From the NCBI RefSeq assembly GCF_048403405.1, contig NZ_CP183129.1: 64,000 bases of DNA. The stretch is one strand, 5' to 3'. The translations under genes were made by a program, and so were the position numbers. Every line of letters starts with the position of its first letter. The first letter of the stretch is position 1. Origin of the DNA: Escherichia coli (GTDB lineage Bacteria > Pseudomonadota > Gammaproteobacteria > Enterobacterales > Enterobacteriaceae). The notes below the pieces were generated by a model. It was not told the origin of the DNA and made no database searches. It saw only the letters and a program-made list of their open reading frames with translations. Of this stretch, positions 32,925 through 36,677 are shown piece after piece.

Positions 32925-35900
32925 ATGCGGATTATTTTTCTACGCAAGGAGTATTTATCTTTACTCCCGTCAATGATTGCATCTCTTTTCTCTGCTAACG
33001 GTGTCGCGGCGGCCATTGATTCATGTCAGGGATATGATATCAAAGCGAGTTGTCACGCCAGCAGGCAAAGCCTTTCAGGCATTACGCAGGACTGGAGCAT
33101 CGCCGATGGGCAATGGCTGGTTTTTTCGGATATGACCAATAACGCCAGCGGTGGGGCCGTATTTTTGCAACAAGGAGCGGAGTTTTCTCTATCGCCAGAA
33201 AATGAAACTGGAATGACTCTGTTTGCCAATAATACTGTCTCAGGAGAATATAATAACGGCGGGGCAATATTTGCTAAAGAAAACTCAACGCTGAATCTTA
33301 CTAATGTTATTTTTTCCGATAACGTTGCAGGTGGCTATGGTGGCGCAATCTATTCTTCTGGTACTAACGATACCGGTGTCGTCGATTTAAGTGTCACTAA
33401 CGCCGTGTTTCGCAATAACATCGCTAATGACGGCAAAGGTGGTGCAATTTATACCATCAACAATGACGTCTATTTAAGTGAAGTTATTTTTGACAATAAC
33501 CAGGCATATACATCAACAAGTTACAGCGATGGCGATGGGGGCGCAATCGATGTCACCGATAATAATAGCGATATCACGCATCCGTCAGGTTTCACAATAA
33601 TAAATAACACCGCATTTACAAATAACACTGCCGAAGGTTATGGCGGGGCAATTTATACCAATAGCGTGACGGCTCCCTATCTTATTGATATTTCGATTGA
33701 TGACAGCTACAGCCAGAACGGCGGCGTGTTACTCGATGAGAACAATAGCGCGGCAGGTTATGGGGATGGTCCTTCCACTGCGGCGGGCGGCTTTATGTAT
33801 CTCGGCTTAAGTGAAGTTACCTTTGATATTGCCGACGGAAAAACGCTGGTTATCGGCAATACAGAGAATGACGGAGCTGTTGACTCTATTGCTGGTACCG
33901 GGGTAATCACCAAAACAGGTTCCGGCGATCTGGTACTTAATGCAGATAACAATGACTTTACTGGCGAGATGCAGATAGAAAACGGTGAAGTTACCCTGGG
34001 CCGCAGCAACTCCCTGATGAATGTCGGCGATACGCATTGCCAGGACGATCCGCAAGACTGCTACGGTCTGACGATAGGGAGTATTGATCAGTATCAGAAT
34101 CAGGCTGAGCTAAACGTTGGCTCGACCCAACAAACTTTTGTGCACGCATTGACGGGCTTTCAGAATGGCACTTTAAATATCGATGCTGGTGGCAACGTTA
34201 CTGTTAATCAGGGCAGTTTTGCTGGCACCATCGAAGGTGCTGGTCAGCTCACCATTGCGCAAAACGGCAGCTACGTGCTGGCAGGGGCGCAGTCGATGGC
34301 GCTAACCGGCGATATAGTCGTTGATGATGGCGCGGTGCTTACGCTGGAAGGCGACGCGGCAGATCTTGCCGCTCTCCAGGACGATCCGCAGTCGATCGTG
34401 TTAAACGGCGGTGTGCTCGATCTCTCTGATTTCTCCACCTGGCAGAGCGGTACATCATACAACGATGGCCTTGAAGTCAGCGGCAGCAGCGGAACGGTTA
34501 TCGGCAGTCAGGATGTGGTAGATCTTGCAGGCGGAAACGATATGCATATCGGCGGTGACGGGAAAGATGGCGTCTACGTGGTGGTCGATGCGGGCGACGG
34601 GCTGGTTAGCCTGGCAAACAATAATAGTTACCTGGGCACCACGCAAATCGCTTCCGGTACGCTGGTGGTGAGCGACAACTCGCAGCTTGGCAATACCGAC
34701 GAAAACCGTCAGCTCATCTTTACTGATAGCCAACAACAAAGTGAGATGGAAATTACCGCTGACGTTGATACTCGTTCAGAGGCAGCAGGTCACGGGCGTG
34801 ATATTGAAATGCGCGCCGACGGTGAAGTGGCGGTTGATGCGGGGGTAGACACGCAGTGGGGCGCACTGATGGCTGACAGCAGCGGGCAGCATCTGGATGA
34901 GGGTAGCACATTGACTAAAACGGGAGCGGGTACGCTGGAAATGACCGCCAGTGGTACGACGCAGTCGGCGGTACGTGTCGAAGAAGGCACGCTGCAAGGC
35001 GATGTTGCGGATATCTTCCCTTATGCTTCGTCGCTGTGGGTCGGTGACGGGGCAACGTTCAAGACTGGCGCGGATCAGGATATTCAGTCAATTGATGTTA
35101 CTTCCAGCGGCACTATCGACATCAGCGATGGTACGGTTTTGCGCCTGACCGGGCAGGATACTTCCGTCGCCCTTAATGCCTCACTGTTTAACGGCGATGG
35201 GACGCTGGTGAATGCTACTGATGGCGTGACGTTGACAGGCGAGCTTAATACCAACCTTGAAACTGACAGCCTGACCTATCTTGCCGACGTGACGGTTAAT
35301 GGTGATCTGACCAATACGTCCGGTGCGGTTAGCCTGCAAAATGGCGTCGCTGGCGATACGCTGACGGTAAACGGTGATTATACCGGCGGCGGTACGCTAC
35401 TGCTCGATAGCGAATTAAACGGCGATGACTCGGCAAGTGACCAACTGGTGTTGAACGGTAATACTGCTGGCAACACGACCGTGGTAATTAATCCCATTAC
35501 GGGTATTGGTGAGCCGACATCTACAGGTATTAAAGTGGTTGATTTCGCAGCCGAACCCACGCAGTTTCAAAACAATGCGCAGTTCAGTCTGGCGGGCAGC
35601 GGCTACGTCAATATGGGCGCGTATGACTACACGCTGGTGGAAGATAACAACGACTGGTATCTGCGATCGCAAGAAGTAACGCCACCATCGCCACCTGATC
35701 CAGACCCGACTCCCGATCCTGATCCCACGCCGGATCCTGATCCAACACCCGACCCGGAACCTACGCCTGCCTACCAGCCGGTGTTGAATGCCAAAGTTGG
35801 TGGATATTTTAATAACCTGCGGGCGGCAAATCAGGCGTTTGTGATGGAGCGACACGATCACGCTGGTGGCGATGGTCAGACGCTGAATTTACGTATTATC

Positions 35901-36677
35901 GGCGGAGATTATCATTACACAGCAGCGGGGCAACTGGCTCAGCATGAAGATACTTCTACGGTGCAGCTTAGCGGCGACTTGTTTAGCGGACGCTGGGGCG
36001 CGGATGGCGAGTGGATGCTTGGGGCGGTTGGTGGCTACAGTGATAACCAGGGCGACAGCCGCTCGAATATGACCGGAACTCGCGCCGATAACCAGAACCA
36101 CGGTTATGCCGTTGGTCTGACCTCAAGCTGGTTTCAGCACGGTAATCAGAAGCAGGGGGCCTGGCTGGATAGCTGGCTGCAATACGCGTGGTTTAACAAT
36201 GATGTTTCCGAACATGAAGATGGCGTGGATCATTACCACTCATCGGGGATTATCGCCTCGCTGGAAGCCGGGTATCAGTGGTTACCGGGGCATGGAGTGG
36301 TGATTGAACCACAGGCGCAGGTGATTTATCAGGGCGTGCAGCAGGATGATTTTACCGCCGCTAACCATGCGCGCGTGTCACAATCGCAGGGTGATGATAT
36401 TCAAACGCGGCTGGGTTTACACAGCGAATGGCGTACCGCTGTTCATGTCATACCATCATTAGATCTGAATTATTATCACGATCCCCATGCGACGGAAATT
36501 GAAGAAGATGGCAGCACTATCAGTGACGATGCGGTGAAGCAACGGGGTGAAATAAAAGTGGGAGTCACGGGCAATATCAGTCAGCGAGTTTCGCTGCGCG
36601 GCAGCGTGGCGTGGCAGAAAGGGAGTGATGATTTTGCCCAGACGGCAGGGTTTTTGTCGATGACGGTGAAATGGTAG
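32925..36677 (+). CDS. yfaL: autotransporter adhesin (AIDA-type) YfaL
   Basis: 1250-aa ORF: passenger with GGAIY-type repeats, proline-rich linker, C-terminal beta-barrel ending in W. Confidence 0.85.
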   Translation: MRIIFLRKEYLSLLPSMIASLFSANGVAAAIDSCQGYDIKASCHASRQSLSGITQDWSIADGQWLVFSDMTNNASGGAVFLQQGAEFSLSPENETGMTLFANNTVSGEYNNGGAIFAKENSTLNLTNVIFSDNVAGGYGGAIYSSGTNDTGVVDLSVTNAVFRNNIANDGKGGAIYTINNDVYLSEVIFDNNQAYTSTSYSDGDGGAIDVTDNNSDITHPSGFTIINNTAFTNNTAEGYGGAIYTNSVTAPYLIDISIDDSYSQNGGVLLDENNSAAGYGDGPSTAAGGFMYLGLSEVTFDIADGKTLVIGNTENDGAVDSIAGTGVITKTGSGDLVLNADNNDFTGEMQIENGEVTLGRSNSLMNVGDTHCQDDPQDCYGLTIGSIDQYQNQAELNVGSTQQTFVHALTGFQNGTLNIDAGGNVTVNQGSFAGTIEGAGQLTIAQNGSYVLAGAQSMALTGDIVVDDGAVLTLEGDAADLAALQDDPQSIVLNGGVLDLSDFSTWQSGTSYNDGLEVSGSSGTVIGSQDVVDLAGGNDMHIGGDGKDGVYVVVDAGDGLVSLANNNSYLGTTQIASGTLVVSDNSQLGNTDENRQLIFTDSQQQSEMEITADVDTRSEAAGHGRDIEMRADGEVAVDAGVDTQWGALMADSSGQHLDEGSTLTKTGAGTLEMTASGTTQSAVRVEEGTLQGDVADIFPYASSLWVGDGATFKTGADQDIQSIDVTSSGTIDISDGTVLRLTGQDTSVALNASLFNGDGTLVNATDGVTLTGELNTNLETDSLTYLADVTVNGDLTNTSGAVSLQNGVAGDTLTVNGDYTGGGTLLLDSELNGDDSASDQLVLNGNTAGNTTVVINPITGIGEPTSTGIKVVDFAAEPTQFQNNAQFSLAGSGYVNMGAYDYTLVEDNNDWYLRSQEVTPPSPPDPDPTPDPDPTPDPDPTPDPEPTPAYQPVLNAKVGGYFNNLRAANQAFVMERHDHAGGDGQTLNLRIIGGDYHYTAAGQLAQHEDTSTVQLSGDLFSGRWGADGEWMLGAVGGYSDNQGDSRSNMTGTRADNQNHGYAVGLTSSWFQHGNQKQGAWLDSWLQYAWFNNDVSEHEDGVDHYHSSGIIASLEAGYQWLPGHGVVIEPQAQVIYQGVQQDDFTAANHARVSQSQGDDIQTRLGLHSEWRTAVHVIPSLDLNYYHDPHATEIEEDGSTISDDAVKQRGEIKVGVTGNISQRVSLRGSVAWQKGSDDFAQTAGFLSMTVKW
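35683..35769 (+). repeat. tandem PDPDPT-encoding repeats in yfaL linker
   Basis: cc(t/c)gatcc(t/a)ga(t/c)cc.ac.cc repeated; translation PPSPPDPDPTPDPDPTPDPDPTPDPEPTP. Confidence 0.6.

Follow-up and report, generated by a model that had tools for sequence, protein, structure and literature searches.

The yfaL gene in the analyzed stretch of Escherichia coli DNA (64,000 nucleotides, hereafter the window) encodes a proline-rich acidic spacer between the passenger and the membrane anchor of its autotransporter product. Within this spacer a hexapeptide is repeated four times as a conserved peptide repeat on diverged DNA copies, and the length of the spacer differs modestly between strains. As a whole, the locus is likely to represent an extended acidic proline-rich spacer that tethers the passenger to the barrel helix, encoded by an old array in which alleles arise by slippage, deletion and recombination.

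The plus-strand ORF at 32925-36677 (1250 aa plus stop codon) is identified by its sequence as yfaL/ehaC, coding for a classical autotransporter adhesin of the AIDA-I type. It matches the NCBIfam YfaL/EhaC equivalog NF007285 over residues 1-1250 of 1250, scoring 2774.7 bits where the cut-off is 1459, and it is 100% identical to the annotated yfaL of the E. coli soil isolate VCSW7 (NZ_CP082357). The gene order nrdA-ypaB-yfaL-ubiG-gyrA, as annotated in this 100%-identical record, is that of the E. coli chromosome. The full-length match above the cut-off and the gene order bear out the name yfaL, which a sequence-only reading of the window had already given to the gene. A total of 5,419 out of 5,426 complete E. 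coli genomes carry yfaL. By sequence comparison the allele of the window is uncommon among them, with at least 99% identity to positions 35400-36100 found in only eight of the 5,419 genomes and about 94% identity in K-12. A minus-strand ORF of 148 aa at 35415-35861, which lies entirely within yfaL, is presumably just a consequence of the reading frame of yfaL on the opposite strand. YfaL display was reportedly described by Ko et al. in 2012.

The anatomy and position of the spacer were established from domain matches, translation and a structure model. The N-terminus of YfaL, MRIIFLRKEYLSLLPSMIASLFSANGVAA, resembles a Sec signal peptide. The autochaperone domain (Pfam AC_1, PF18883, E 2.8e-18) occupies residues 794-904 (35304-35636, plus strand), matches the IcsA autochaperone structures 3ml3 and 5ke1 and aligns to the AIDA-I structure 4mee. 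The autotransporter beta-barrel (PF03797, E 8e-33; also TIGR01414) occupies residues 990-1228 (35892-36608, plus strand), with model strands covering 986-1249. Since both the barrel and the autochaperone domain were found by profile and model, YfaL is classified as a type Va autotransporter of the AIDA-I type. The spacer PPSPPDPDPTPDPDPTPDPDPTPDPEPTPAYQP spans residues 920-952 (35682-35780, plus strand), as delimited by translation, composition and the AlphaFold2 model, and the four units within it span residues 924-947 (35694-35765, plus strand). The repeat was thus correctly placed between passenger and beta-barrel by the sequence-only reading. The AlphaFold2 model, built for residues 787-1250 from an alignment of 20 sequences (mean pLDDT 86), gives a finer placement. 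The last predicted beta-helix strand ends near residue 918 at WYLRSQ (query residue 132), beyond the Pfam end of AC_1, and the repeat lies between this strand and a predicted alpha-helix at residues 956-970 (35790-35834, plus strand; query 170-184), which is followed by the barrel. Residues 919-949 are modelled without secondary structure at a pLDDT of about 50-57, a value that reflects model uncertainty only. By likeness to other autotransporters, helix 956-970 is predicted to be the pore-running helix of the barrel. The composition of the spacer is extreme, with 17 Pro, 7 Asp, 1 Glu and 4 Thr among 33 residues (52% Pro), and it holds 17 of the 32 prolines in the whole protein.

The yfaL frame (frame 1 of the ORF) reads ...WYLRSQEVT-PPSP-[PDPDPT]x3-PDPEPT-PAYQPVLNAK... 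through this region. The four tandem 18-bp units lie at 35694-35711, 35712-35729, 35730-35747 and 35748-35765, encode PDPDPT three times and PDPEPT once, and are themselves built of 6-bp Pro-X sub-units; the interval 35683-35769 given earlier corresponds to the four units plus a PPSPP lead-in. In Tandem Repeats Finder the array scores 65, with a period of 18 bp, 3.9 copies and 75% matches; a 36-bp and a partial 6-bp period are given as well. The repeat had been described from sequence alone as near-perfect 18-bp units encoding PDPDPT, which holds for the peptide, where 23 of 24 residues are identical across the four units. It does not hold for the DNA: any two units agree at 12-15 of 18 positions (67-83%), and the longest exact direct repeat in the array is the 11-bp GATCCTGATCC. 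The differences between units all fall at third codon positions (three to six of the six per pair), with none at positions one and two. Six of the 18 alignment columns are variable and all of them are third positions, for which p = 1/18,564 under the assumption that each of the 18 columns had the same chance of varying. Differences confined to third positions argue for purifying selection on the peptide and against a recent expansion of the DNA. We also considered whether codons had been scrambled against slippage and found no support. Proline codon usage in the linker (CCA 5, CCT 5, CCG 4, CCC 3) is not significantly different from that elsewhere in the gene (Fisher p = 0.45), and a comparison with shuffled codons showed no depletion of identical neighbouring proline codons (p = 0.54).

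Two further observations concern this and another array. Consecutive prolines followed by Asp (PPS, PPD) are motifs at which ribosomes stall in the absence of EF-P. TPPSPPD at 35682-35699 is such a consecutive-proline motif, and from its sequence the synthesis of YfaL may need EF-P. At a Tandem Repeats Finder score of at least 50, the whole 64-kb window holds two arrays, the yfaL repeat being one. The other lies at 16776-16847 (24-bp period, three copies) within the minus-strand ORF 16662-17621 and encodes 24 residues close to the C-terminus of a 319-aa protein, which resembles a recombination-promoting nuclease of the Rpn/YhgA type.

The unit-specific synonymous codons of the window are common to K-12 and O157:H7, and mostly to Nissle too. 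It follows that the copies are positionally orthologous and predate the diversification of the species, and that they have not been homogenised. Between strains of equal linker length the changes within the four units are nearly all synonymous, the sole exception seen being one Pro to Gln in O157:H7.

Length polymorphism was observed directly among 60 records, which were drawn at even intervals from the 5,419 complete E. coli genomes as ranked with a 341-bp query centred on the repeat; this ranking by BLAST score groups linker lengths by construction and is not evidence that length tracks haplotype. The linker has the length of the window in 39 genomes, is shorter by 18 bp in 13, by 24 bp in two and by 36 bp in one, and is longer by 6 bp in four and by 12 bp in one. 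An earlier sample of 40 rows gave the same length picture. The repeat count is thus not the same in all strains: 21 of the 60 sampled genomes deviate, as the sequence-only reading had predicted for yfaL orthologues, and the step is 6 bp instead of 18. Among the sequenced alleles the proline-rich segment ranges from 21 to 37 residues. K-12, Nissle and O157:H7 show no length change. PEC011 and MEI4B carry 6 bp more (...PDPAPDPT), and Rb-50 has an additional 12 bp owing to an exact tandem duplication of CCCGACCCAACC. The deletion alleles read PPDPDPDPTPDPDPTPDPIP in 504211 and CUVET18-789 (-18 bp), PPDPDPTPDPTPDPEPT in 4069 (-24 bp) and PPDPDPDPTPDPIP in OkiPb01679 (-36 bp). The record with the 36-bp deletion (H100) first appeared as a partial match, which raised the possibility of disruption by an IS element; this was rejected, for the gene is intact and BLAST had simply not bridged the shorter linker. 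Matches in the protein database include more arrangements, among them a 37-residue linker from an Escherichia cryptic-clade genome. In the alleles retrieved, all in-frame length changes are multiples of 6 bp and not of 18 bp, and strict Pro-X alternation is kept in every one. Length thus changes with the Pro-X pair as the basic unit, on which the hexapeptide is superimposed as a pattern of higher order.

Flanking sequences were compared for the tempo of these changes. The window (0), PEC011 (+6) and 4069 (-24) differ at zero to six sites across flanks of 250-300 nt. MEI4B (+6), CUVET18-789 (-18) and OkiPb01679 (-36) have a common upstream flank with zero or one difference, and Nissle (0) and Rb-50 (+12) have a common downstream flank. 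Downstream, 25 of 300 sites differ between MEI4B and CUVET18-789, and an indel confounds the comparison with OkiPb01679. Such differences in linker length between nearly identical flanks point to recurrent indels, to recombination with breakpoints at the linker, or to both. The idea of strictly lineage-linked stable alleles was dropped, because near-identical or mosaic flanks carry differing lengths. The flanks near the linker appear mosaic across strains, and this sequence pattern suggests intragenic recombination in yfaL around the linker. The junctions fit short-homology slippage as the putative mechanism. The exact 12-bp duplication in Rb-50 is one example, and the -24 allele could have arisen by deletion between copies that contain GATCC. 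In VTB97022v (L011), 168 bp have been lost in frame, with two copies of GATCCCACGC joined at the junction.

Several observations relate to larger rearrangements at the linker. In-frame deletions with one end in the repeat lose the last autochaperone strands in VTB97022v (168 bp) and in P0009, a protein from a metagenome contig, in which DYT is joined directly to PAYQP. The yfaL gene of VTB97022v is annotated as intact and, judged by the sequence that it has lost, is probably non-functional. Hundreds of partial YfaL pieces were found on draft contigs of Shigella sonnei (L013, L015, L017; P0012, P0024-P0116). These pieces stop inside the repeat (...PPSPPNPNPTPDPDPTPDP) or begin just past it (APTPAYQP), and the upstream contig also starts within yfaL. 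Contig ends without overlap suggest an unassembled interruption of the linker, possibly by an IS element. In addition, an exact 12-nt inverted repeat, ACCATCGCCACC at 35684-35695 and GGTGGCGATGGT at 35865-35876 (169 nt apart), flanks the segment coding for the repeat and the predicted pore helix, and is not conserved in the Nissle-type allele. One protein match, P0016, starts with MGSGSGVGSGSG, a reverse-complement reading of the repeat. We rejected it as a real inversion allele: its contig (L018, positions 1-600, from the single NCBI draft assembly GCA_045750765.1) is a contig-end fold-back joined exactly at the 12-nt inverted repeat, and probably arose as an artefact of the library or of assembly, or by template switching.

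A repeat in a surface adhesin may also be read as a contingency locus, in which a simple-sequence tract switches yfaL on and off through slipped-strand frameshifts. Rare frameshifted products that end within the repeat were indeed found (P0029, P0032 and P0041, all from run-level assemblies), but these may be assembly errors. The degree of divergence between the DNA copies and the short longest exact repeat described above also speak against such switching, as does the period, which is a multiple of three, with all length alleles of complete genomes in frame and in multiples of 6 bp. Moreover, a single linker length is seen throughout the K-12 laboratory derivatives and O157:H7 genomes in the sample. 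From diverged copies, a period that is a multiple of three and a single length in K-12 derivatives and O157:H7 we conclude that this is not a phase-variation tract; the switching explanation is largely refuted and keeps only a minimal probability.

The closest architectural match among known systems is TibA, the self-associating autotransporter of ETEC, which is described as having "an additional proline-rich domain" between its junction region and C-terminal domain at residues 627-677 (PMC3835316). YfaL carries a proline-rich segment at the same architectural place, residues 920-952 lying between AC_1 and the helix and barrel. The YfaL segment is shorter (33 residues) and has a regular PDPDPT hexapeptide repeat. 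Functional data on the TibA modules and the proline-rich domain were reportedly presented by Cote and Mourez in 2011. For the polymorphism, the closest match is pertactin of B. pertussis, in which the copy number of the GGFGP and PQP repeats in regions 1 and 2 varies among isolates (PMC3966384). Short proline-containing tandem peptide repeats with isolate-variable copy number are shared by both proteins. However, the motif differs, the polymorphism of pertactin, a pathogen's protein, is known to be antigenic and to matter for vaccines, and the DNA copies of YfaL are strongly diverged. We know of no antigenic or vaccine-relevant polymorphism for YfaL.

Alternating Pro-X stretches also serve as extended spacers between folded domains in TonB, with (EP)n(KP)n, in the OmpA hinge and in the Pro-Thr linkers of cellulases. 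These are unrelated proteins from other compartments and offer an analogy only; the 1994 review by Williamson is cited in PMC11166332. Within the autotransporters, the AIDA-I structure 4mee aligns over residues 808-1244 (E 6e-35) on either side of the spacer, with WYLTS in AIDA-I versus WYLRS in YfaL at the autochaperone end, a linker region that in YfaL is predicted to span the pore, and a 12-stranded barrel. In AIDA-I the junction has about 17 fewer residues and is not proline-rich. Relative to AIDA-I, the YfaL repeat is therefore an insertion at the junction. The arrangement of WYL[RT]S followed by a proline-rich spacer also occurs in autotransporters that are only 30-35% identical (P0081, P0082, P0091 and P0117-P0120), and one of these, the metagenomic P0081, has at least seven PDPxPT-like units. 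The homologues P0090, P0099, P0101 and P0113, like AIDA-I, are without such a spacer. By sequence comparison the proline-rich spacer is thus recurrent yet optional in the family, and its absence from AIDA-I and several homologues implies that autotransport itself does not require it. The range of 21 to 37 residues, together with the deletions in L011 and P0009, indicates that its length is not tightly constrained.

As a putative mechanism, the alternation of Pro-X with acidic and Thr side chains would favour an extended, polyproline-II-like chain with no globular fold, and the lack of modelled secondary structure and the place just outside the barrel fit such a chain as well. This chain would link the folded beta-helical passenger, via the autochaperone cap, to the alpha-helix that is predicted to plug the outer-membrane beta-barrel. 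Located just outside the barrel mouth, it would determine how far the passenger is held from the membrane surface. The geometry of an extended chain is about 0.31 nm per residue. The 33-residue spacer would accordingly have a maximum length of about 10 nm, with about 0.6 nm gained per Pro-X pair, so that the observed alleles may cover about 6.5-11.5 nm. In physical terms it is thus reasonable that repeat number would alter the reach of the passenger, as the sequence-only reading proposed. The corresponding change of reach over the alleles (about -3.7 to +1.2 nm) is small compared with the passenger of about 900 residues. At the DNA level, the coding sequence would be an old (CCN-GAY/ACN)n array in which almost every synonymous site has come to differ between copies and the peptide has been kept. 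Occasional replication slippage in 6-bp steps, or deletion and duplication at short homologies, together with intragenic recombination, may have produced the alleles of 21-37 residues. A literature search found no paper pairing "YfaL" with "proline-rich" and no experimental work on the YfaL spacer.

The segment could also be neutral low-complexity filler. Lack of structure would then be all that the junction requires, neither its length nor its repeat pattern would serve a function, and drift would explain the polymorphism. The short junctions of AIDA-I and several relatives, which are not proline-rich, would fit this, as would the occurrence of all lengths from 21 to 37 residues in intact genes and the finding that about 65% of the sampled genomes have one length with no obvious association. 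On the other hand, the Pro-X alternation and the Asp/Thr composition have been kept despite synonymous divergence between the copies at three to six of six third positions per pair, the alternation is unbroken in every allele, and similar PDPxPT spacers exist in proteins just 30% identical. In sequence terms these patterns point to selection on the character of the peptide, not necessarily on its exact length, and we regard pure filler as rather unlikely.

Selection could conversely act on variation itself. The spacer might be a surface epitope under diversifying selection by immunity or phages, as in pertactin, with the change in length or sequence as the selected trait. In the model the spacer lies at the outer end of the anchor and is probably exposed, isolates differ in repeat number as they do for pertactin (PMC3966384), different lengths occur on near-identical flanks, and a published list of E. 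coli genes that show a signal of positive selection includes yfaL (PMC9110714). That signal is not mapped to the spacer and could be an alignment artefact of indels; the linker may contribute to it or may create it by misalignment. The changes within the units are overwhelmingly synonymous, there are about six length classes, one of them dominant, in the 60 sampled of 5,419 genomes, and the literature yielded no immunological data on YfaL. An epitope of this kind is therefore quite improbable. A related adaptive reading, in which lengths between 21 and 37 residues are re-tuned to the thickness of O-antigen or capsule so that the passenger just clears it, or serve escape from antibodies or phages, is improbable as well. 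Such re-tuning, if true, could account for the differing lengths on near-identical yfaL haplotypes. We favour the extended spacer on an old array.

Proline-rich spacers between passenger and anchor have already been described in TibA and pertactin, and yfaL is an annotated and near-universal gene of E. coli, so that the length polymorphism makes a modest contribution, of a descriptive kind. It nevertheless bears on the use of yfaL sequences, because linker indels in 6-bp steps could produce false signals in the alignments of selection scans, and it is relevant to YfaL scaffolds for surface display. The linker is also a recurrent end of in-frame deletions that trim the autochaperone domain, by which the adhesin is probably inactivated yet annotated as intact. 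Finally, the series of alleles with 21-37 residues offers a natural set in which spacer length may be related to exposure of the adhesin through LPS.
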